DNA of 64,000 nucleotides from an uncultured Alphaproteobacteria bacterium (GTDB lineage Bacteria > Pseudomonadota > Alphaproteobacteria > UBA3830 > JAIRWN01). Of this stretch, positions 6,137-60,376 are shown piece by piece. How positions within the stretch are numbered: position 1 is the first letter of the stretch; each line of letters begins with the position of its first letter. A program made the position numbers and the translations under genes. The stretch lies in assembly GCA_964369315.1 (NCBI GenBank), contig CAYJEJ010000001.1:4091-68090 (forward strand), written 5' to 3'. The notes beneath the pieces were generated by a model, which ran no database searches, had not been told where the DNA came from, and saw only the letters and a list, made by a program, of their open reading frames with translations.

Positions 6137-7336
6137 ATGGAAAATTTATATCCAAAATTTTCGTTTTCTATCACCCATCAAGACGGTGGTAGTCGCGTTG
6201 GCATAATAAAATGCCCTCACGGAGAAATCGAAACCCCAGCTTTTATTTTTTGCGGGACAAAAGCTTCCGTAAAAGGTGTGTTTCCTCAGCAACTGCACGA
6301 ATGCGGCACACAAATCATCCTGTCTAATACTTACCACCTCATGTTGCAACCCACAGCAGACATCATTCAAGCAAATGGCGGTTTACACAAGTTTATGGGG
6401 TGGAACAAACCAATTTTAACGGACTCAGGTGGTTTCCAAATTTTCAGCCTTGGACACGGCTCAGTTGCCGATGAAATCAAAGGGCGACGCTCTAATGCCC
6501 GTCCATCCTCCTTGGTTTCGATAACAGAACATGGGGCAACTTTTAAATCCTATATTGATGGAAGCGTTCAACACCTAACGCCTGAAAAATCAATTGAAGT
6601 TCAAAGAAAACTTGGGGTTGACTTTATGGTCTCACTGGATGAATGCACCCCATACCATAGCGATTATGAATACACAAAACAGTCCATGCTCCGCAGTCAT
6701 CGATGGGAACAACGCTCCCTGAATGACTTTATTAAACATAGCAACGAAACACAGTCAATATACGGCATTGTTCAAGGCGGCGTTTACAAAGAATTAAGGA
6801 ATCAGAGTGTAGAGTTTGTCAATAGCCAACCATTTTTCGCAAATGCTGTCGGCGGAACATTGGGCGGGACAAAAGAACAAATGTATGAAATTGTTGGGTT
6901 AACGATGGAAAACCTAAATAAAAACAGACCTACCCACCTCTTGGGGATTGGGGGATTAGGTGATATTTTGGAAAATGTCTCTCATGGCATTGATACCTTC
7001 GATTGCGTCCACCCAACAAGAATAGCCCGTCATGGAGCTGCTTTAACCGTGCCGTCACAAGTCAGGAACGGTCAAAGAGAGCATATTAACTTAAAAAATT
7101 CGATTTATAAAATAGACGACACCCCAATACAAATAGGTTGCCGTTGTCATGCATGTTTAAACTTTTCTAAAGGATACCTGCATCATTTATTAAAAGCGAA
7201 CGAGCTCCTAGCTTTTCAAGCAATTAGTGTTCACAACATCGCTTTTATGAATAATTTCATGACTATGGTTCGCTCTGCGATAAAAACAAATACGCTCGAA
7301 AAATTTAAAAACGATTGGAAAAATGGCAATATATAA
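6137..7336 (+). CDS. tgt: tRNA-guanine transglycosylase (queuine tRNA-ribosyltransferase)
   Basis: The ORF is open from 6098. The likely start is MENLYPKFSF at 6137. Motifs: TPAFIF, LTDSGGFQ, LDEC, GIDTFDCVHPTR, and zinc site CRCHAC...H. Confidence 0.92.
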   Translation: MENLYPKFSFSITHQDGGSRVGIIKCPHGEIETPAFIFCGTKASVKGVFPQQLHECGTQIILSNTYHLMLQPTADIIQANGGLHKFMGWNKPILTDSGGFQIFSLGHGSVADEIKGRRSNARPSSLVSITEHGATFKSYIDGSVQHLTPEKSIEVQRKLGVDFMVSLDECTPYHSDYEYTKQSMLRSHRWEQRSLNDFIKHSNETQSIYGIVQGGVYKELRNQSVEFVNSQPFFANAVGGTLGGTKEQMYEIVGLTMENLNKNRPTHLLGIGGLGDILENVSHGIDTFDCVHPTRIARHGAALTVPSQVRNGQREHINLKNSIYKIDDTPIQIGCRCHACLNFSKGYLHHLLKANELLAFQAISVHNIAFMNNFMTMVRSAIKTNTLEKFKNDWKNGNI

Positions 7337-24504: not shown

Positions 24505-26013
24505 TTAAAGGTTTTCGAAGTCTTTTATTTTAAAATCAAAGTACTTAATAGCGGTTATTTGTAGAGCTAATTCGTTAAAACCACAAGAGAGATTGTTATC
24601 TTTCAATTGCTCTAGGGTGCTGTTTGGGTTAAGCAACACGTCAGAGAATTTTATGACAGATTTTAAGTAATCTAATTCATTAGGGTAGGTTTCAGCGAAT
24701 GCTTTTGGGAACTTTGTTTTTATTTCCCCTTGAGCATTGGTGAAATTATATTCATTCGCCGTGTCGCAAAATGGGTTGCAAGAAAACAATGCTCCTAATT
24801 GAAAGGTTGTGTCCCAGTATGAGTTAAATGCAAAACCTTTGAAATACCCAAGAAGCATTCGATGGGGCTCCTCTTCTTGAACAATTATGTCTTTGTGAAA
24901 GAAAGGTAGGTGTTTTCTATTGATTATGTGTCTGGCGATATAACTGTCCATAAAATCTACGAATGTTGCTAAATCTTTAAAAGATTGTGCCCCACGGTTG
25001 TTCCAACTTCTATTACCACCACCATATATTTCATCAAATATTTTTAAACCATAATAATATTCCCCCAATGCATATTGTAAAGCAATAGAATTATCAAATA
25101 ATTGATAATATTGCTTAAGAAACACACATTTTTGTTCAGACGTATTTGTGGTTGTGTCGAGCAGTATATCTGAGACGTCAGCACATATATTTGTTAATTC
25201 TTTCTCTTTTTTTATTGCATTTAAGCTAAGATTGTCTGTTGTTAAATAGCGAAAAGTTTCGGAGTATAATCTTGCAGAACTCCAATCTATTATAAAAATT
25301 GTTGGATTCTGAGGTGTCATGTCACTGTAATTTATAAAAAAATTTTTTCCATGCATATCTCCTTGATGATAACCCCTTTCAGGCAGAACACATAATAAAT
25401 TACCCCAAAATTCTTCAGTTTTCTCGGCTTCATCGAGTTGTTTTGCTCTTGTGTGATGAGATAAGATACCAAATATTTGTGTTCCTTGAGCGAATGGTTG
25501 TATTTGTACAAGTTTTTCATTTGGATTTAACTTCCCTATTTGACTTAGGTCATCGGATAAGAAGTTAATTTTTCTAACATTGTGACTTGATGTATCTACT
25601 ATCAACATATCTGTGGGGTGCACGGCGATGACCTTATAAGTTTCTCCATCAAAATCGAAATCAAATATAGGTGTTAAACCATTGTCAGATGGTGTTATGT
25701 TCTTTGCCATCATTTGGGACTTAAGGATTTGTAGGCTTTTGAATTCTTCATTGTCTCTTTGGGATTCGGCAATTTTGATAATATGGTTTTCATGTTTGTA
25801 AATGTGGGCGATTTTCTCTATTGGATAGTGTATTTTTTCCACGAGAGCTTTAGTGTCGTCATTAGGTGATATTTGTACTAATTTTGTTTTATCAATATTA
25901 AAATGTTGAGAAGCAACATTGAGCATGTCGTCAATATTTAAGGCAGCGTTTAAATGGCAAGCACTAACTATTGATGTGATGGCAAGACATAAATAAGTAT
26001 ATAATTTTTTCAT
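24505..26013 (-). CDS. exported protein-kinase-like / aminoglycoside-phosphotransferase-fold protein, paralog A
   Basis: Start is MKKLYTY at 26013, with AGGAG 8 nt upstream (the ORF is open to 26046). Signal peptide is LCLAITSIVSACHLNA. Kinase-like motifs: HIIKIAES, YHQGDMHGKNFFI (HxDxxxxN-like) and IFIIDWSSA. Confidence 0.6.
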   Translation of the reverse strand: MKKLYTYLCLAITSIVSACHLNAALNIDDMLNVASQHFNIDKTKLVQISPNDDTKALVEKIHYPIEKIAHIYKHENHIIKIAESQRDNEEFKSLQILKSQMMAKNITPSDNGLTPIFDFDFDGETYKVIAVHPTDMLIVDTSSHNVRKINFLSDDLSQIGKLNPNEKLVQIQPFAQGTQIFGILSHHTRAKQLDEAEKTEEFWGNLLCVLPERGYHQGDMHGKNFFINYSDMTPQNPTIFIIDWSSARLYSETFRYLTTDNLSLNAIKKEKELTNICADVSDILLDTTTNTSEQKCVFLKQYYQLFDNSIALQYALGEYYYGLKIFDEIYGGGNRSWNNRGAQSFKDLATFVDFMDSYIARHIINRKHLPFFHKDIIVQEEEPHRMLLGYFKGFAFNSYWDTTFQLGALFSCNPFCDTANEYNFTNAQGEIKTKFPKAFAETYPNELDYLKSVIKFSDVLLNPNSTLEQLKDNNLSCGFNELALQITAIKYFDFKIKDFENL

Positions 26014-26143
26014 TCTTTTACTCCTTATTTTTAGAACGATATACACTATATATCACAAATATACCGTAATAGTCAAAGAAACCTTATTTTGAATTTTGTT
26101 AAAAATTGCTGTTTTTTTGTATAAAGGAGATGGTGTTTTTTAT

Positions 26144-26245: not shown

Positions 26246-27754
26246 TTAAAGGTTTTCGAAGTCTTTTATTTTAAAATCAAAGTACTTAATAGCGGTTATT
26301 TGTAGAGCTAATTCGTTAAAACCACAAGAGAGATTGTTATCTTTCAATTGCTCTAGGGTGCTGTTTGGGTTAAGCAACACGTCAGAGAATTTTATGACAG
26401 ATTTTAAGTAATCTAATTCATTAGGGTAGGTTTCAGCGAATGCTTTTGGGAACTTTGTTTTTATTTCCCCTTGAGCATTGGTGAAATTATATTCATTCGC
26501 CGTGTCGCAAAATGGGTTGCAAGAAAACAATGAACCTAATTGAAAGGTTGTGTCCCAGTGTGAGTTAAATACAGACTCTTTGAGATATTCAAGAGAAAAG
26601 ATTGCATTGTCTTGAACAATTATGTCTTTGTGAAAGCAAGGTAGGTGTTGTCTATTGATTATGTGTCTAGCGATATAACTGTTCATAGAATCTACTAATG
26701 TTGCTAAATCTTTAAAAGATTGTGCCCCACGGTTTTGCCACTCTAACGTATTTTCACGCATCTCTAATAATTGACAATCTTCACATCCAAAGAGATATTC
26801 ATAAACGGGTGACGAATCGAAAAAAGCAAAAAATTTTCTATTGAAGTGTTTTCTAAGTTTTTCAAGGATATGTGCAGCATTGTTCCCCCTTTGTACCATA
26901 CCCCAGTCTAAGGGTGGGGCATCATTTTGAGCTAATTGACCAAGGCGGGATAATTGTTTCTCTGCGTTAAAGCTAAGAGCATATGGAAGGAGAATAAGCG
27001 GTATTAGCTCCATCTCTTCTTGCTCTCTTGCGGAGCTCCAGTCTATAAAATAACAAATTCTTTTATTAGGTAAGAACAATATATTACCAGAATTACCATC
27101 TCCATGGGAAATTTTGTTTTCATAGAGAGTGCATAATAAATTACCCCAAAATTCTTCAGTTTTCTCGGCTTCATCGAATTGTTTTGCTTTTATGTGAGAA
27201 GATAAGATGTCAAATATTTTTGTTCCTTGAGCGAATGGTTGTATTTGTACAAGTTTTTCATTTGGATTTAACTTCCCTATTTGACTTAGGTCATCGGATA
27301 AGAAGTTAATTTTTCTAACATTGTGACTTGATGTATCTACTATCAACATATCTGTGGGGTGCACGGCGATGACCTTATAAGTTTCTCCATCAAAATCGAA
27401 ATCAAATATAGGTGTTAAACCATTGTCAGATGGTGTTATGTTCTTTGCCATCATTTGGGACTTAAGGATTTGTAGGCTTTTGAATTCTTCATTGTCTCTT
27501 TGGGATTCGGCAATTTTGATAATATGGTTTTCATGTTTGTAAATGTGGGCGATTTTCTCTATTGGATAGTGTATTTTTTCCACGAGAGCTTTAGTGTCGT
27601 CATTAGGTGATATTTGTACTAATTTTGTTTTATCAATATTAAAATGTTGAGAAGCAACATTGAGCATGTCGTCAATATTTAAGGCAGCGTTTAAATGGCA
27701 AGCACTAACTATTGATGTGATGGCAAGACATAAATAAGTATATAATTTTTTCAT
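26246..27754 (-). CDS. exported protein-kinase-like / aminoglycoside-phosphotransferase-fold protein, paralog B
   Basis: Same signal peptide and N-terminal ~178 aa as paralog A. Central motifs are ISHGDGNSGNILFL and CYFIDWSSA. The last 94 aa are identical to A. Confidence 0.6.
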   Translation of the reverse strand: MKKLYTYLCLAITSIVSACHLNAALNIDDMLNVASQHFNIDKTKLVQISPNDDTKALVEKIHYPIEKIAHIYKHENHIIKIAESQRDNEEFKSLQILKSQMMAKNITPSDNGLTPIFDFDFDGETYKVIAVHPTDMLIVDTSSHNVRKINFLSDDLSQIGKLNPNEKLVQIQPFAQGTKIFDILSSHIKAKQFDEAEKTEEFWGNLLCTLYENKISHGDGNSGNILFLPNKRICYFIDWSSAREQEEMELIPLILLPYALSFNAEKQLSRLGQLAQNDAPPLDWGMVQRGNNAAHILEKLRKHFNRKFFAFFDSSPVYEYLFGCEDCQLLEMRENTLEWQNRGAQSFKDLATLVDSMNSYIARHIINRQHLPCFHKDIIVQDNAIFSLEYLKESVFNSHWDTTFQLGSLFSCNPFCDTANEYNFTNAQGEIKTKFPKAFAETYPNELDYLKSVIKFSDVLLNPNSTLEQLKDNNLSCGFNELALQITAIKYFDFKIKDFENL

Positions 27755-27884
27755 TCTTTTACTCCTTATTTTTAGAACGATATACACTATATATCACAAA
27801 TATACCGTAATAGTCAAAGAAACCTTATTTTGAATTTTGTTAAAAATTGCTGTTTTTTTGTATAAAGGAGATGGTGTTTTTTAT

Positions 27885-45906: not shown

Positions 45907-46629
45907 CTAACAGAGGTACTGCCCGCCATTTATACTCATTGTCGCACCGTTTATATATCCTGATGAATCACTGACCAAGAACTTAACAGCATCGGCGATT
46001 TCTTGGGGTTGCCCTAGTCTGCCAGCAGGAATCTGAGCTTTTATGGTGTCAATAACGTTTTGCGGGATGTGTTTGGTCATATCAGTATCTATGTAACCAG
46101 GGGCAATGCAATTTACAGTAATATTGTTGCGAGCTGACTCTAGTGCCAGTGCCTTAGAAAATCCTATGATACCAGCTTTTGCAGCTGAATAATTCGTCTG
46201 ACCTACCTGACCCTTAAGACCGTTAATGGAGCTGATGTTGACTATTCTGCCGAACCTCCTGTCCCTCATTCCAGTAATGACCAATCTGCACATGTTAAAT
46301 ACGGAGCCTAGGTTCGTCAAGATAACCTCAGACCACTGGGATTCATTCATTTTATGGAGCATGCTGTCTCGGGTGATGCCAGCATTATTCACCAAAACCT
46401 CAACCGCACCAAATTGGTTTTCTATTTTCTTGAGCCCTTCTTCACAGGCTGAAAAGTTCGACACATCCCACTTAAAAACAGGGACGTCAAATTTTTGATG
46501 AAATTCCTGTGCGACCGCGTCATTCCCGCTATAAGTGGCGATGACGTTATAACCTGCTTGCTTCAAAGTTTGGGAGATTTGACCGCCAATTCCACGTGTT
46601 CCACCTGTTACTAAAGCTATTCTAGACAT
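45907..46629 (-). CDS. phaB: acetoacetyl-CoA reductase / 3-oxoacyl-ACP reductase (SDR)
   Basis: 240 aa. VTGGTRGIG, NNAGI and YSAAK motifs. Overlaps the upstream PhaC-like gene by 8 nt. Confidence 0.8.
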   Translation of the reverse strand: MSRIALVTGGTRGIGGQISQTLKQAGYNVIATYSGNDAVAQEFHQKFDVPVFKWDVSNFSACEEGLKKIENQFGAVEVLVNNAGITRDSMLHKMNESQWSEVILTNLGSVFNMCRLVITGMRDRRFGRIVNISSINGLKGQVGQTNYSAAKAGIIGFSKALALESARNNITVNCIAPGYIDTDMTKHIPQNVIDTIKAQIPAGRLGQPQEIADAVKFLVSDSSGYINGATMSINGGQYLC

Positions 46630-47824
46630 TTTTCCTACTCTTAATACTGTTACTCAGCCAACTCATGCAAGGAAAAACAAACTCTTCCTCACTTCTACTA
46701 CCAACCATAAAACCGACATGTCCTACATTAGGGCGAACAGCTGTAACATCAGCGTCAATGCCGACTAAACCATCTGACGCATTGAACGGGACAATCTTAT
46801 CTTTGGTTGGCGTTATTATAAAAACGGAATGGTTAACAAAATCTGAATCGATTAGTTGGTTGTTAATATATAATTTTTTATTAAATAATCGATTTTCCTT
46901 AAAAAAATTCATCAAGCATTCGGAGAAAAATTTTTCTGACAAAGGTCTGAGGTCATTTATCCAATCTTCAACTTGGACGAAGAGTTCAATTTTTTTCTCA
47001 TTTTCTTCATCGGCGAACTTGGAAAATTTATTAATGACAGTACCCGCCTGAAGGCTGCTTAGGAGCTTTTTTAATAAGCCATTTAACTCTTGTATACTAA
47101 GGCTGACGTTTTTTGCATATTTTGTGATAAACCTATCAATCAGTTGTTGCTCAGAAGGTTGATAGCAACGAAAGTTCCAAGGAGTTGCCATTAGAACAGA
47201 ACCCGCTGGGCGTATTTGAGAGTCTTTTAATAAAACGCTCAATATATTGGTCAACACGCCGCCAAGACAATAGCCGAAAGTATAAATGGGCAGTTTAAAT
47301 TGCTCATACACGGTTTTATAGGCGGGCATTAAGATGTGTTCTATATAGCCTGTCATATCATAATTTTCTTTATGTGTGTGTTTTCCCCAATCTAAGAAAA
47401 TCGGCAAAATGGACAGTTTTAACAGGTGTTTTGCAAAATTGTTCGCAGGAAGGTGAAAAATGGACGGGTTGTTCATGGGTGCACTAATAAAAAATGCGAT
47501 TGCCTTTGGGGTAAAGGGCCACAGCGTTTTATACCCATAAACACTCGCAGAACCAGAGCTCCAAAAAGGAACCCTGTCTTGTTCTTTATCAAAATTTTTA
47601 TAGTCTCTGTTGAACTTTTGGTACTTAACCACGCCATGAATAAATTTTTCAAATCTTTCCTGAACGCACCCTTCAACCAAGGTATTAAATTCACTTGTTG
47701 GGGATTTTTTTGAAAATTTGCAACCTGTTTTTTTTAGTAAACGCGGGTCATAAAGCGTCTTTAACCCAAGAAGCCAAGGCGTCAGTGCAGAGCCCATAGA
47801 AAAATTTAGGTCGCGTTCGTCCAT
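46622..47824 (-). CDS. PHA-synthase-like alpha/beta hydrolase (class III PhaC-like)
   Basis: 400 aa. Lipase-box with Cys nucleophile FGYCLGG (GxCxG) and C-terminal His region VGHVGFMVG. Confidence 0.6.
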   Translation of the reverse strand: MDERDLNFSMGSALTPWLLGLKTLYDPRLLKKTGCKFSKKSPTSEFNTLVEGCVQERFEKFIHGVVKYQKFNRDYKNFDKEQDRVPFWSSGSASVYGYKTLWPFTPKAIAFFISAPMNNPSIFHLPANNFAKHLLKLSILPIFLDWGKHTHKENYDMTGYIEHILMPAYKTVYEQFKLPIYTFGYCLGGVLTNILSVLLKDSQIRPAGSVLMATPWNFRCYQPSEQQLIDRFITKYAKNVSLSIQELNGLLKKLLSSLQAGTVINKFSKFADEENEKKIELFVQVEDWINDLRPLSEKFFSECLMNFFKENRLFNKKLYINNQLIDSDFVNHSVFIITPTKDKIVPFNASDGLVGIDADVTAVRPNVGHVGFMVGSRSEEEFVFPCMSWLSNSIKSRKNV

Positions 47825-52890: not shown

Positions 52891-54585
52891 TTAATCGCCA
52901 GAAAAATGTATTGGTCTTGGGTCGTTGCTATAGGATTTAAATATTCTTTTATCAGCAGCGTCGATTGTGATGTTTTCATTCGGGACGATATGCACTCTTA
53001 AAAAAATCACCAGTTCGGTCACATCATTTGTCCTGCTGCGTCCCCTTGTAATTTCACTCAGGACAGGCATCTTGTCTGTTGCGGGGATGCCATAGTTTTT
53101 TCTGTCAGTATTTTCTTGCATTAATCCGCCCATAATAATCCCTTGTCCAGATTGGACTTTTAGTATGGAATCTATTTCACGCACCTCAACGACAGGCACT
53201 TCCGAGCAGATGCTGTTTAATATTGATGATAGCTTGGCGGTATCTGTTGTATTGTTTTGTGTCAGTTGGCTAGCCAATACGGATATTGCTGGGTCTTTTT
53301 TGACGCTTACAACCCTTGAAATGGTCGGTCTGATGGTTAAAATGACCTCGCCAGTTTCTAGGTTGATTGCAGGTTGTACTGCCATGATTAACCCTATTGG
53401 CACCGCTTGCATTTTGCTCTCTGCTGTGACGTAGTCTCTGGAGGTAGTTGCTGTCTCATTTTTAGTATTGTGCGTGAATTTTATTTGAAAAAATATTTCA
53501 TTTTTTGCAACCTTGAGCACGGCAGTTTGGTTGTTCATAACCGTTATTCTTGGGTTTGAAAGCGTTCTGACACTGCCGAAACCCTCGATAAATTTTAATA
53601 TACTAGAGATGTTTTTACTAGTATATCCGAGGGTATACAAGTTCGCATCACCAGAGAGGATGTTCACTGATGCGTCTTGGATGCTGGCTCCTGTTGGGAC
53701 GCCAATGATTTGGCTAGACATTCCCGATTGCCAGTCTATGCCGCTTTTAAATTTATCATTTAGCGTTACTTCAAAAATTTTTGCCTCTATTAACACCTGG
53801 GAGGTGGCGGTCATTTTCAGGGCGTTAATATATGTGCTAATTAGCCTATGCTGGCGTTCAGTTGCTGTTATCGACATCAACCCGCCTTGTTTATGAATTG
53901 ATACGGGTTTTTGTAGTCCATGTGGGTCATTGGCATTAATAATTGCATTAAGTGTGAACTCTAACTCCTGCCAAAAGTCGACATTCGTTTCACCTTTTAT
54001 GGTGTTATTGGAGCCGTTTATAGTCATATTATCATCTTCTTTTTTATTCTTGCTTTTAAACATATCTGGTGTGGTCGACAGCTCGCTGCTCCCATGCCTC
54101 GCCATTGATAAAAATTGCAAATTATAAAGCTTTAAATACGGTTTATCGGGCTCTATATGAACCGTAGAGCCCTTGATTTTATAGCGTAATTTACTCATCT
54201 CACATAAGTCCGCGATGACTTCAATAAATTGTCTATCTTTTGCATTAAACTCGACAGGAGATTTTATTTTGGATGACACCACAATACTGATGCCGAGCTG
54301 TTTTGCAATTTCTATCAACACTTTGTTGATTGGTGCGGATTCAGAAAAAGAAATGCTCACTTTTGACAAAAATTTTGGGCTTATTGGTTGTTCGTTGGGT
54401 AAGATGTTTTTTATTGGTTTATATTTTTCAGGAGGCAGATAATTTTTTGGCGGTTCGGTTATGGTTGCTAATACTTTTCTTTCAATGGCTTTTTTATCGA
54501 GCTCGGTTTTGCTCATATACTGAGAACAGCTTGCGAGGGATAAGATGATTAAACAAAAGGCGAACAAACTCAGGTATGTTTTCAT
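52891..54585 (-). CDS. secretin-family outer-membrane channel, lipoprotein type (MshL/PilQ/GspD-like)
   Basis: 564 aa. Lipobox LSLASC. Secretin core ...VLIEAKIFEVTLND...GIDW... and C-terminal ...GGLMQEN...GIPATDKMPVLSEI...ELVIFLRVHIV. Confidence 0.8.
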   Translation of the reverse strand: MKTYLSLFAFCLIILSLASCSQYMSKTELDKKAIERKVLATITEPPKNYLPPEKYKPIKNILPNEQPISPKFLSKVSISFSESAPINKVLIEIAKQLGISIVVSSKIKSPVEFNAKDRQFIEVIADLCEMSKLRYKIKGSTVHIEPDKPYLKLYNLQFLSMARHGSSELSTTPDMFKSKNKKEDDNMTINGSNNTIKGETNVDFWQELEFTLNAIINANDPHGLQKPVSIHKQGGLMSITATERQHRLISTYINALKMTATSQVLIEAKIFEVTLNDKFKSGIDWQSGMSSQIIGVPTGASIQDASVNILSGDANLYTLGYTSKNISSILKFIEGFGSVRTLSNPRITVMNNQTAVLKVAKNEIFFQIKFTHNTKNETATTSRDYVTAESKMQAVPIGLIMAVQPAINLETGEVILTIRPTISRVVSVKKDPAISVLASQLTQNNTTDTAKLSSILNSICSEVPVVEVREIDSILKVQSGQGIIMGGLMQENTDRKNYGIPATDKMPVLSEITRGRSRTNDVTELVIFLRVHIVPNENITIDAADKRIFKSYSNDPRPIHFSGD

Positions 54586-54666
54586 ACCGAAGTTTTATCA
54601 GAAAAATTTAGTTAAATAAATATTAATTTTTATCGAATTCGTCAAAATATTAATTTGAGGTTAATA

Positions 54667-55455
54667 TTACCTATACAAACCCTTAATTCCTGTCAAAGTC
54701 AGAACACCTATAAAAAACAAAACTGCAATGAACAAACCTGATATAATAAAAGCAAGAGTTAACAGTTTAGAAGCCTTGTATTTATTGAACAACTCATACA
54801 GTTTATAAATAATATTATGAACAACAGAGTTTAGGCGTGAAAAAATTGATAATGATATAGTTATTAAAGGAATAAGAAGAAAGCCATACTTAAATTTAAC
54901 ATCGCCATAACTATAACTCTTAAACGTCATATAAAAAATGTTAAGGGCTAAAAGAAAAGCTGTAATAAACTTGGGAATATATTTTTTGTAGCAGAAATTA
55001 GGGTTGAAGTTTTTTCTAATCCAAGTTTTTAAAATATTTATGCTTAATATGATAGGCAATAAATGACCTATCATTACTCCAGCTACAACATTTATAGATA
55101 GTTTGTCGTTTGATATTGCCAAAATAAACCATCCCAACAATGATGCTGATACGAAAATAGGTATGGTTATAAGAAAAATATTAAGGTACTTATCACGTAA
55201 TTCAGGAGCCGATTTTAATAATATTTTTTTAATAAAACATGCAATTAAAAAAACTATAAAAATAACAAATAAAATAGAACAGAGCCCACATTCTTGTCGA
55301 CCAAAATCCCCCACAATCTGATTATTAGTCTGCCCACCTTCAGTTTGTATAGGGTCAACTTGTACTGGTTCATTTTTGTTTTCCTCGTTGATATTAGCGT
55401 TGTCTTCGGATTGAGACTCATTGCCAAAGATATAGTCATGGATATCAGAGTCCAC
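54667..55455 (-). CDS. hypothetical polytopic membrane protein (about 6 TM) with an acidic/Asn-rich N-terminus
   Basis: 262 aa. The GTG start overlaps the stop of the upstream 606-aa ORF by 11 nt. Its first ~37 codons lie inside direct repeat DR-L. Confidence 0.5.
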   Translation of the reverse strand: MDSDIHDYIFGNESQSEDNANINEENKNEPVQVDPIQTEGGQTNNQIVGDFGRQECGLCSILFVIFIVFLIACFIKKILLKSAPELRDKYLNIFLITIPIFVSASLLGWFILAISNDKLSINVVAGVMIGHLLPIILSINILKTWIRKNFNPNFCYKKYIPKFITAFLLALNIFYMTFKSYSYGDVKFKYGFLLIPLITISLSIFSRLNSVVHNIIYKLYELFNKYKASKLLTLAFIISGLFIAVLFFIGVLTLTGIKGLYR

Positions 55456-55513
55456 CGTATTCCACCACTTTGTTTGTTAAGAACTGTTTGTTTGGGTCTT
55501 TTAGGTAGACTTT
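55344..55513. repeat. direct repeat DR-L (170 bp)
   Basis: Aligns with 57236-57393. Near-identical blocks are tttgtatagggtcaacttg(t/c)actggttcattttt... and cgtattccaccac(t/a)(t/a)tgtttgttaagaactgtttgtttgggtctt. The middle is diverged with a 12-bp length difference. Confidence 0.9.
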
Positions 55514-57265
55514 TTGTTTAGTCGTTGGATGTATGTAGTAGAGATTATACCTCGATCCATTGAGGTGTTCGCCTACGACTGTGGCTTTTAGTGTTTCTTT
55601 CGATGACCCAATGTGTCCGCTCACGTCTACGTTTGCTTGTGATACTCCTTTGGTTTTGAAATACACGACGTTGTAGTCTGGTGTTGTGCAATCTTTGATG
55701 TTGATGTTTTGTTTTGTCCAGTCTTTAATTCTATCTGGTTTGAAGACTAGGTCTGGTTGATTTTTCGTGCACGTGTTTATAGCCAAAGCCGTTATGTTCT
55801 TCACGTACTCAGGTGAGAGGTTGCCTGTTACCTCAGGAGCCATGAACATTAGGTGTCCATCATTTAGAGCGGAAGTGGAGCTCATGCGTTGGACTTCAGC
55901 CTTTGCGAATGTTTCAGCATCTGATGAGCTTAGCCCTAGCCTCATACCTTCTGCTAACTTATTCCTCAAGAACACGGACGCTTTATGTATGTCATTGCCT
56001 CCGACCTCTACTGATTGCCAAAACCAAAAGTTTTGGTCGAACATTGCCTTAGCCTTGCTTTCAGCGTCAAACTTCTTGATGGTTTCTCGTTGGTCGTCAG
56101 TCAAGCCTGTTCTGTTTTTCTCGAAGATGATTTGTCTGTATCGTTTAATGTTTTCGTATGTATGGGATTTTGGGTCGTTGGGGTTGAACGATGCCTCGAC
56201 CATTGTTGCGAATGCGTTATAGCTTTCGGTGTTGATGGACGAGATGTTCTCAGCTCTTAATCCTTGAGACACTCTGAACGCCCCGACAGCCTCGACCACT
56301 TCAGTTGCCCCGCCATACTTGAAAGCGTTCTCAATCTTCTTGCAGTATTTGTTGAGGTTGGTGTGATACTTAGCACCTTGGATTGCGTACACATTGGCAG
56401 TTGGCTCGCCGTTCTGACCTGACAAGATAGACAACTCATACTCGAATGCTTTGTTTAGTTGTTCATTAGTTAGTCCTGTTTCTGTGTCGGTCTCAGCATG
56501 TTTGCACACTAGTGCGTAATTGTCTTGAGCTTTGAGCGTAGCCTTATCCTTTTGAACCAGTCTAGCCATGAGCTTATTTCTCTGGACTTCCGAGAGGTAC
56601 TGGCTTCCTACGATGTCTTGTTCAGTCAGAGTTCCTTTGACGAGTTGTATCTTAAGTTCAGTCTCTTCGATGTTGGCTCTATTCTTGAGGTCAGCCTCTG
56701 CAACTTTCTCGGCTTGTCTCTCTCTTTTCTCGAGGGACTTGATGCTAGAAGCAACGAACCTCTGAAGGCTTTGACGTTTCTCGGCGGACAGATTGCTAGT
56801 ATGTTCTTTGCTATTAAGCAGAGCCATTGCGTTGTAAGGGTCTTTGGAGACATGTCCGAGAATAACGTTCGCGTCGAAGTCTTCAGTAAGCTTCTTCTCG
56901 AACTTGTTGTAGTCACTAGCAGGCAAGATGCCTTTGCAGTTCTCGATGGTTTGTTTGTAGTTGACCCATATTGCGTCTTTGTTTTCAGGTGTATCTCGCA
57001 AGATGTTTAGCATTTGACCGGCTTGTTGCAGTGCGGACTGTCTGGTGTTTGCTACCCGCATAGCGTTTTCCTCCGAGAAGGATTTGTTAGCCCAGTCTTG
57101 ATGGAGTTTCATGGAGAACGTATCTAGTGCCTTAGACACATTGTCGGTGGAAGCGTTTTTCTTTAAGTCGTCTTTATGTTTACCGACTTGACCGGTCATG
57201 AACTGCATGTACCCTTCACCGGACGGGTTAGACTGTTTGTATAGGGTCAACTTGCACTGGTTCAT
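55445..57265 (-). CDS. hypothetical ~590-606-aa protein with distinct codon usage (possibly phage- or HGT-derived)
   Basis: Long uninterrupted ORF. Alternative start MQFMTGQ at 57208 is preceded by GAAGGG. No signal peptide. Helical Lys/Glu-rich N-terminal half and beta-rich C-terminus. No motif recognised. Confidence 0.55.
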   Translation of the reverse strand: MNQCKLTLYKQSNPSGEGYMQFMTGQVGKHKDDLKKNASTDNVSKALDTFSMKLHQDWANKSFSEENAMRVANTRQSALQQAGQMLNILRDTPENKDAIWVNYKQTIENCKGILPASDYNKFEKKLTEDFDANVILGHVSKDPYNAMALLNSKEHTSNLSAEKRQSLQRFVASSIKSLEKRERQAEKVAEADLKNRANIEETELKIQLVKGTLTEQDIVGSQYLSEVQRNKLMARLVQKDKATLKAQDNYALVCKHAETDTETGLTNEQLNKAFEYELSILSGQNGEPTANVYAIQGAKYHTNLNKYCKKIENAFKYGGATEVVEAVGAFRVSQGLRAENISSINTESYNAFATMVEASFNPNDPKSHTYENIKRYRQIIFEKNRTGLTDDQRETIKKFDAESKAKAMFDQNFWFWQSVEVGGNDIHKASVFLRNKLAEGMRLGLSSSDAETFAKAEVQRMSSTSALNDGHLMFMAPEVTGNLSPEYVKNITALAINTCTKNQPDLVFKPDRIKDWTKQNINIKDCTTPDYNVVYFKTKGVSQANVDVSGHIGSSKETLKATVVGEHLNGSRYNLYYIHPTTKQKVYLKDPNKQFLTNKVVEYGGL

Positions 57266-57335
57266 TTTTCTTTTCCTCGTTGATGTTAGCGTTGTCCTCG
57301 GATTGAAGCAAAATGTCAGAGATATTATATCCCAT
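57228..57335 (-). pseudogene. truncated second copy of the 5' end of the membrane-protein gene
   Basis: Encodes MGYNISDILLQSEDNANINEEKKNEPVQVDPIQTV*, compared with MDSDIHDYIFGNESQSEDNANINEENKNEPVQVDPIQTEGGQ... at 55455. Homology ends exactly where DR-R ends. Confidence 0.6.
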
Positions 57336-57393
57336 CGTATTCCACCACTATGTTTGTTAAGAACTGTTTGTTTGGGTCTTTGAGGTAGACTTT
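57236..57393. repeat. direct repeat DR-R (158 bp)
   Basis: Partner of DR-L, 1,892 bp away. Together they bracket the body of the 606-aa ORF. Confidence 0.9.
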
Positions 57394-57501
57394 ATGAAAA
57401 GCTCCCGCAATAAGAGGCAAGTTAAATAAATTTATAGTGATTAAAGCAGAAAGATATTTTAGAAATAATGAGAGGTGTTTTTTGCAAAATTTATAATTCA
57501 T
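57325..57501 (-). CDS. 58-aa ORF whose last 22 codons duplicate the C-terminus of the 606-aa ORF
   Basis: Encodes MNYKFCKKHLSLFLKYLSALITINLFNLPLIAGAFH-KVYLKDPNKQFLTNIVVEYDGI*. The 606-aa ORF ends ...KVYLKDPNKQFLTNKVVEYGGL*. Below the ORF-track cutoff, and coding status is uncertain. Confidence 0.35.
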   Translation of the reverse strand: MNYKFCKKHLSLFLKYLSALITINLFNLPLIAGAFHKVYLKDPNKQFLTNIVVEYDGI

Positions 57502-57830
57502 ATTTATAATTAAACGTTCTATGTAATATAAAGCTAATATATAATATTATGGTGATGATAACAACACCCAAACGGTTGATTATTCTATGGTGGGGGTCAG
57601 GTGTATAATGGTGAGCGAGAGCTTGTTCGTATGAAGTTTCCTTCCCTTAAAGCCCCTAGAAGATGCAGTATGGGATGTAGACCCAACGTCATTATGCCGG
57701 TTTTCAAAGCAAGTGAATTTTTGTTGAGGAGGCTATTTTTTAGAGCTGTTTTTTCGGTTCTTCTTTCATAATGCTATTTCACTGCTATTAATTCTAAGTC
57801 ACCTCTGGAAAGAGCCCAGTATTTTTATGC

Positions 57831-60251
<2,421 letters not shown>

Positions 60252-60290: not shown

Positions 60291-60376
60291 TGGTGCCCGT
60301 GGAGGGACTTGAACCCCCACGACCTATTGGTCAACAGATTTTAAGTCTGCAGCGTCTACCATTCCGCCACACGGGC
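60291..60376 (-). tRNA. tRNA-Leu (anticodon UAA)
   Basis: The reverse complement is GCCCGTGTGGCGGAATGGTAGACGC...GCAGA-CTTAAAA-TCTGT...long variable arm...GGTTCAAGTCC...CACGGGCACCA. Confidence 0.93.

Follow-up and report, generated by a model that had tools for sequence, protein, structure and literature searches.

Background

T7-like podophages carry their internal virion genes in the order gp14, gp15, gp16, and in the ejectosome of PhiM1 tetrameric, octameric and third ejection proteins are stacked above the portal (PMC11440229). The product of T7 gp15, internal virion protein B, is a long and mostly alpha-helical protein with a small beta-rich C-terminal part. Here I describe a locus in a stretch of 64,000 nucleotides from an uncultured alphaproteobacterium (contig CAYJEJ010000001.1, positions 4,091 to 68,090; the whole stretch is referred to as the window), in which a 606-aa open reading frame (ORF), gene A, appears to encode a truncated relative of gp15. 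It lies between gyrB and an orphan secretin gene, is followed by a 262-aa ORF, gene B, and has a direct repeat at either end, DR-L and DR-R. The locus is likely a duplication/deletion scar in a decayed, phage-derived remnant that holds a 5'-truncated A. A sequence-only reading of this DNA had seen in the repeats a cassette that could switch which protein carries a shared C-terminal tail; the main value of the present analysis lies in correcting this picture, as the apparent tail-swapping recombination cassette would be a duplication/deletion scar and a case of ordinary prophage decay.

The locus shares features with several kinds of described elements. Like cryptic prophage remnants it holds what seems to be an isolated and truncated phage structural gene, with housekeeping flanks and a deviating composition, but unlike typical remnants of this kind A is still open over 606 codons and no integrase or attachment (att) site is recognisable. 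As in the scars of tandem duplications, the spacing of the repeats equals the presumed duplicated unit, with a junction of codon 34 of B and position ~97 of A; in contrast to simple scars, only 162 bp of the second copy are left, and the repeats are 84-88% identical with a coding-like divergence, so both copies were possibly functional for a time. The products of Campbell-type recombination, such as integrated suicide plasmids and prophages between attL and attR, also show a unique segment between two direct repeats, but here no recombinase accompanies the segment, the repeats consist of coding sequence that belongs natively to the flanked gene, and this gene is cut at the repeat edge.

The direct repeats and their content

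Along the minus strand the order is gyrB, 58-aa ORF, stub, A, B and secretin gene, with the following features.

57831-60221, minus strand: gyrB (list of ORFs and family search)
57325-57501, minus strand: 58-aa ORF (list of ORFs)
57235-57396, minus strand: DR-R, apparent relic of a second junction of A tail and B head, 162 bp (repeat search, alignment and blastn)
57228-57335, minus strand: 35-codon stub (list of ORFs)
57243-57281, minus strand: GAGG-N9-ATG with M1 of the 606-aa ORF, a possible ribosome-binding site and start inside DR-R (read from the sequence)
57233-57236, minus strand: novel junction, codon 34 of B (..PIQT) joined to family position ~95-97 of A (..SNPSGEGY) (repeat end and motif start)
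55445-57265, minus strand: gene A, the 606-aa ORF (list of ORFs)
55343-55516, minus strand: DR-L, the native A-B junction, whose tail extends the family homology without a break (repeat search and alignments)
54667-55455, minus strand: gene B, the 262-aa ORF (list of ORFs)
52891-54585, minus strand: MshL-like secretin gene (list of ORFs and family search)

DR-L and DR-R are direct repeats of 174 and 162 nt at a spacing of 1,892 bp. The repeat search returned them as two segments, 55343-55433 with 57235-57325 (91 nt, 88% identity, spacing 1892) and 55435-55516 with 57315-57396 (82 nt, 88%, spacing 1880), which together form one repeat interrupted by a single in-frame indel of 12 nt. In a blastn search of the whole window, each copy matched the other copy alone (E = 5e-51) and neither revealed a third one; by this E-value the match is far beyond chance. 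The sequence-only reading had reported two direct repeats 1,892 bp apart and four minus-strand ORFs, and repeat search, ORF list and blastn confirm these together with their coordinates; the alignment of the two copies, which it had proposed as a check, gives 84% identity over 174 columns and the one 12-nt indel.

Its description of the same coupled junction in each repeat is borne out as well: there are 22 sense codons and a stop, an 11-nt overlap and a B head of ~34-38 codons. DR-L contains the last 23 codons of A, stop included, the 11-nt overlap and the first 38 codons of B, and DR-R contains 23 codons of the A tail, stop included, and 34 codons of the B head. Stop and start overlap by 11 nt at both junctions (55445/55455 and 57325/57335), and the start (GTG/ATG) and the stop (TGA/TAA) are retained at the same positions in both copies. 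The tail peptides of the two copies are KVYLKDPNKQFLTNKVVEYGGL and KVYLKDPNKQFLTNIVVEYDGI, each followed by the stop, and the head peptides read ...QSEDNANINEENKNEPVQVDPIQT and ...QSEDNANINEEKKNEPVQVDPIQT. Divergence between the copies is uneven, with 6 differences in 126 positions (4.8%) in the two flanks and 8 in 33 (24%), plus the 12 gapped bases, in the core around stop and start (core versus flanks, Fisher p = 0.002). The 4-5 differences in the head are confined to third codon positions (p about 0.004-0.012), and identical runs of 31 and 20 bp remain between the copies. This pattern is of the coding type and suggests that each copy was a coding sequence for some of its history.

Two familiar kinds of direct repeats do not fit. 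The direct terminal repeats of phages have a similar length, but DR-L and DR-R are internal coding sequence that flanks 1.7 kb; a transposon target-site duplication would be short (2-14 bp) and near-identical, whereas the repeats here are 162-174 bp long and 84-88% identical. The repeat search showed no inverted repeats at the ends of the insert, and the sole inverted-repeat pairs have their arms elsewhere (54105-54128 with 57490-57513, and 56230-56249 with 57891-57910). There is no transposase-like ORF in the ORF list between 54.6 and 57.8 kb, family searches of the ORFs between 48 and 63.6 kb revealed no gene for a recombinase or integrase and no other mobility gene, and an Rfam scan of 54000-58200 gave no match.

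The native tail and the truncated front of gene A

Word-indexed homolog searches with A, B and the family alignment returned only the query itself, and the family of A surfaced solely in exhaustive HMMER searches. A phmmer search of 1.84 G (billion) representative proteins yielded 48 remote homologs of A at E <= 1e-3, 17 of them at E <= 1e-10, with 20-29% identity and E-values down to 1e-24; nearly all are 650-750 aa long, so that the family measures ~700 aa. A hidden Markov model (HMM) of length 702, built from 45 homologs with the window protein excluded, matches A over HMM positions 92-676 (E = 1e-82).

This alignment extends into the tail of A (...KVYLKDPNK), where the C-terminal consensus of the family, kYnlYYl..gdpsskeYltdpkt, stands against ...RYNLYYIHPTTKQKVYLKDPNK in the window protein. 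Many family C-termini have the motif K-x-Y-L-x-D/N-P followed by a short, beta-like stretch of alternating hydrophobic residues, and the native motif is seen in remote homologs such as P0029 (...QKVYLQDPSTGEPVRWSF), P0015 (...SKVYLINPNTASRFVIDF) and P0048 (...YKIYLTDPRGQLLWIDF). As members of the family natively carry this motif, the tail belongs to A, and the upstream copy in DR-R is a relic. The sequence-only reading had itself named a native tail in homologs of the 606-aa protein among the findings that would speak against its cassette, and such tails are what these three proteins and the HMM reveal.

At its other end A is incomplete. It lacks the first ~91-95 conserved N-terminal residues of the family (..Y.P.Y.GVNQ.L....G.G.I.F..ALA..S..), and in the phmmer alignments its residues ~9-12 pair with residues ~95-100 of the homologs. 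Homology starts at SNPSGEGY, with S12 of the ORF at window position 57232, within two codons of the edge of DR-R at 57235; the codons for residues 1-11 come from DR-R, read in another frame than that of the B head. No fragment of family positions 1-91 was found anywhere in the window in a six-frame HMM scan, which also showed no family homology upstream of DR-R. Since A is cut mid-gene at the edge of DR-R, the flanked 'cassette' is not a complete functional unit; to judge from where the family alignment begins, the inner edge of DR-R marks a junction left by duplication or deletion and not the end of an inserted cassette.

Phage context and fold of the family

Known families offer little guidance. 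A, B and the 58-aa ORF have no Pfam, NCBIfam, PHROG or PADLOC match, and the sub-threshold Pfam hits Arc_PepC and Suc_Fer-like for A and DUF3894 for the 58-aa ORF were dismissed as noise. The homologs of A that were searched have no Pfam, PHROG or NCBIfam assignment either, with one weak exception, P0006, which hit a PHROG of unknown function (E = 4.6e-4). The family profile had no significant match among PDB sequences, annotated phages contained no tblastn match to A, P0005 or P0029, and a comparison of A with plasmids was negative as well.

The gene order around the homologs is more telling. P0004 is found on 32-kb IMG/VR viral contigs together with a large terminase and a T7-type portal. 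On four independent contigs a gene of ~180-190 aa precedes the family gene, which in one of them (L081) is phrog_418, 'internal virion protein', and downstream follows a gene of 1,000-1,300 aa that matches phrog_342, 'internal virion protein with endolysin domain'; a gene for a tail protein (phrog_376) is located further upstream in L083. This gene order corresponds to gp14 / gp15 / gp16 in T7-like podophages. The homologs thus lie between gp14-like and gp16-like virion genes, but A does not: in the window the DR-R relic and gyrB are found upstream of it, and the ORFan B and the secretin gene downstream.

A single-sequence AlphaFold2 model of A was unusable, with a predicted local distance difference test (pLDDT) score of 47, and a model built with the family alignment (pLDDT 83) was used instead. 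In Foldseek its best PDB matches are 8vb2_E of the PhiM1 pre-infection ejectosome (E = 7e-5, probability 1.00) and 9jyy_G of the T7 core (E = 0.012, probability 0.92). The template modelling (TM) scores are low, 0.21-0.24 for these two chains and 0.2-0.4 overall, so the fold match is supportive, not strong. In BFVD the model has 51 matches at E < 1e-3, some of them annotated 'Internal virion protein B'.

From these data I conclude that A is a predicted member of a T7 gp15-like family of podophage internal virion or ejection proteins, an assignment based on the gene order of the homologs and the fold probability, with no sequence-level link to solved structures. The modelled protein is, like T7 gp15, long and mostly alpha-helical with a small beta-rich C-terminal part, and its homologs lie, like gp15, between a gp14-like (phrog_418) and a gp16-like (phrog_342) gene, near tail and portal genes. 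Unlike T7 gp15, A matches no PDB chain by sequence and reaches only the TM-scores given above, and the window copy is missing the first ~91 positions of the family and lies in a chromosome, between gyrB and the secretin gene, without phage neighbours. A family of ~700 aa without a Pfam, PHROG or NCBIfam model thus becomes assignable as gp15-like ejection or internal virion proteins of a group of ~20-40-kb podophage contigs, placed by gene order and fold.

Two observations on these phage contigs may be added. In the early region of two unrelated contigs with the gp15-like family an IS110-type DEDD transposase gene (PF01548 and PF02371; L082 2938-3918, L085 1739-2677) lies beside ERF or AAA_24 genes, possibly an insertion sequence or else an integration enzyme carried by the phage. 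In L083 a separate gene for a VgrG3-like_C peptidoglycan hydrolase of 210 aa (6236-6868) lies between the gp15-like and the gp16-like gene, so that the lytic domain is not fused to the gp16-like protein there.

The 58-aa ORF, the stub and gene B

The 58-aa ORF is a chimera of 35 AT-rich, hydrophobic codons without a homolog and the relic 22-residue A tail with its stop; only the tail part matches A in blastn, and the exact sequence is absent from a collection of 15 G (billion) proteins. It probably does not represent a separate gene. The stub is the relic start of a B-like gene, begins with ATG and ends 5 nt past the repeat, and both ORFs are presumably by-products of the rearrangement.

Gene B encodes 262 aa from a GTG start, with an acidic N-terminus and ~5 hydrophobic segments by hydropathy. 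It is an ORFan, with no homolog and no PHROG match, and neither B nor the secretin gene has similarity to five phage loci. The GC content at third codon positions (GC3) is 0.27 in B and 0.52 in A, which also exceeds most neighbours of A in this respect. B occupies the position that the gp16-like gene has in the phage relatives, without similarity to that gene. The N-termini of the gp16-like proteins are acidic, as is the head of B, which may derive from such an N-terminus.

Translation start of gene A

The NCBI call of A is a 'hypothetical protein' of 587 aa (P0001), for which an exact-sequence look-up gave no record and which starts at M20 (57208) rather than M1 (57265). The M20 start lies just after NPSGEGY and cuts off the best-conserved N-proximal motif of the family, which the M1 start keeps. 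Upstream of M20 there is a poorly spaced GAAGGG, whereas the Shine-Dalgarno-like GAGG in front of the ATG at 57265 is better spaced, and it is possible that this GAGG-N9-ATG, in an alternative frame of DR-R, starts translation of the truncated A. The annotated protein, whose start may be mis-called, can now be recognised as a 5'-truncated member of the gp15-like family. Neither promoter nor terminator scans exceeded the shuffled expectation; this includes the number of promoter-like hexamers upstream of the 58-aa ORF (57607-57579 and 57564-57536, minus strand).

Origin of the locus

In the history that I favour, an ancestral A would have overlapped the start of B by 11 nt, and the A-B junction would once have been present twice. 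A unit of 1,892 bp, from codon ~97 of A to codon ~34 of B, would have been duplicated in tandem, and a deletion would then have reduced the upstream copy of A to its last 23 codons. DR-R would be what remains of the upstream copy, 162 bp of A tail and B head with a breakpoint at each edge. The spacing of 1892 bp and a junction between the 3' and the 5' end of the unit are indeed those of a tandem-duplication scar. The rest of the second copy was presumably lost by deletion, as the 434 bp between DR-R and gyrB have no detectable similarity to A or to phage loci, and at its outer edge DR-R meets AT-rich sequence without a homolog, the first 35 codons of the 58-aa ORF. An alternative path, in which a whole module was duplicated, or two related prophages lay in tandem, and two deletions followed, would fit equally well, and the substitution pattern would seem to suit it somewhat better. 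Several large deletions are needed anyway, the rest of the phage module being gone on both sides, so parsimony cannot separate these histories. What the data show directly is the repeat, the family membership of A, its native tail, the cut at the edge of the repeat and the phage surroundings of the homologs. The ancestral state and the order and type of these events are what I infer, and so is the present lack of function of the repeats, which appear to be a scar without a dedicated role. A rare homologous deletion of A via the repeats is possible, and nothing indicates that it would be programmed. A remnant of this kind would not be expected to give rise to a virion.

Several points weigh against this history. 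The searched collections contain no close relative of the organism or of A, and the ancestral state is inferred, not observed. Around A no other phage gene is recognisable in Pfam, NCBIfam and PHROG searches or in the comparison with phage loci. The third-position bias in the head of the repeat is based on just 4-5 substitutions. In addition, A is intact over 606 codons and retains conserved family residues, and it is therefore possibly still under selection and not mere debris; in a simulation of neutral decay it stays open with a probability of ~0.15, 0.02 and 0.003 at 2%, 4% and 6% divergence, respectively. The flanks of the repeats point to ~2.4% divergence per lineage, a level at which this simulation is not decisive.

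It is rather unlikely that A and B, possibly with the adjacent secretin gene, form a domesticated module that is expressed and selected, with DR-R co-opted as a 5' leader and a chain of translational coupling from the 58-aa ORF over the stub to A, which would have its own Shine-Dalgarno sequence and ATG. The ORF of A is intact despite the diverged scar, its family motifs are conserved, the GAGG-N9-ATG lies in DR-R, start and stop are kept in both copies, and there are the promoter-like hexamers mentioned above, though not in excess of expectation; but the argument from ORF survival is weak at the divergence seen, B and the 58-aa ORF have no homologs in the collections searched, no defence-system model (PADLOC) or other family matches, and the secretin has generic secretin homology only. 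A bolder form of this idea, in which a domesticated A, translated from the GAGG-N9-ATG of the scar, would form an envelope-spanning device with the five-segment membrane protein B and perhaps the MshL-like secretin, and in which rare recombination between the repeats would switch the device off, is very doubtful. If A proves to be expressed, a host would here have kept a component of a phage ejectosome; nothing here shows that. The Campbell-type insertion put forward by the sequence-only reading is quite unlikely. A circle with the body of A and a copy of the junction would have entered a resident junction of a small ORF and B, leaving active repeats between which the cassette could leave and re-enter, so that the tail would move from one ORF to another. 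The R'-U-R topology is that of a single-crossover product with direct repeats on both sides of the insert, the longest identical runs would in principle be enough for rare RecA recombination, and the GC3 of A is above that of B and of most neighbours. However, the repeat is not foreign to the inserted gene; since proteins of the A family natively end in this tail, a resident site would itself have to derive from an A-B module, the 'cassette' begins mid-gene at family position ~95, no integrase or recombinase was found nearby, and the repeats are just 84-88% identical. With no third copy in the window and no sign of excision either, tail-switching repeats find no backing, whereas the second option of that reading, a partial tandem duplication followed by a deletion, is essentially the one favoured here, given the truncation at the repeat edge and the native tail.

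Even less probable is a cassette for gene conversion or phase variation, with DR-R as a silent donor that replaces the N-terminus of B or the C-terminus of A. Such a cassette could explain the conserved flanks around a variable core with its in-frame indel, but ordinary coding constraint predicts the same pattern, the variable core is limited to the 3 final codons of A and 10-14 codons at the start of B, and two copies in 64 kb, with neither a recombinase nor further cassettes found, make this highly improbable. It is extremely unlikely that the locus is an artefact of an assembly that fused reads from phage and chromosome via shared k-mers: the source is apparently a draft contig of 154 kb and the composition of A is unlike that of its neighbours, but the copies are set apart by an indel and by differences at 12-16% of positions, each has unique flanks, and a jump inside shared sequence would not put the mid-gene breakpoint of A exactly at the repeat edge. 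A duplication/deletion scar in a decayed phage remnant remains the likely origin of the locus.

Host genome and neighbouring genes

The best identity of gyrB is 58%, to various Alphaproteobacteria, and some Gammaproteobacteria reach 53-56% (scan of genome contigs). The source probably represents a low-GC (39%), deep-branching lineage. In the collection of 15 G proteins A, B and the secretin each form a singleton. Metagenome contigs gave no match in a scan with the secretin or with a degenerate DNA pattern of the tail peptide, and a scan of IMG/VR with A revealed no close relative.

The secretin encoded at 52891-54585 (minus strand) is an orphan of the MshL/GspD type (PF00263, E = 2e-25; TIGR02519, 197 bits, below the cutoff). 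No partner genes for a pilus or type II secretion lie near it, its neighbours being B and an isochorismatase-family gene, and its similarity to pIV of filamentous phages is generic only. A 400-aa ORF among housekeeping genes at 46622-47824 (minus strand) has no Pfam family at E <= 1e-5.

The tRNA nearest to the remnant, tRNA-Leu(taa) at 60291-60376 (minus strand), lies across gyrB from it, ~70 bp upstream of that gene, and it is conceivable that it was an old phage attachment site. Elsewhere in the window, at 24505-26046 and 26246-27787 (minus strand), two adjacent genes encode 513-aa paralogs without a Pfam family, with 64% protein and 74% DNA identity; as this pair is a second tandem duplication in the window, duplication seems recurrent in this genome.

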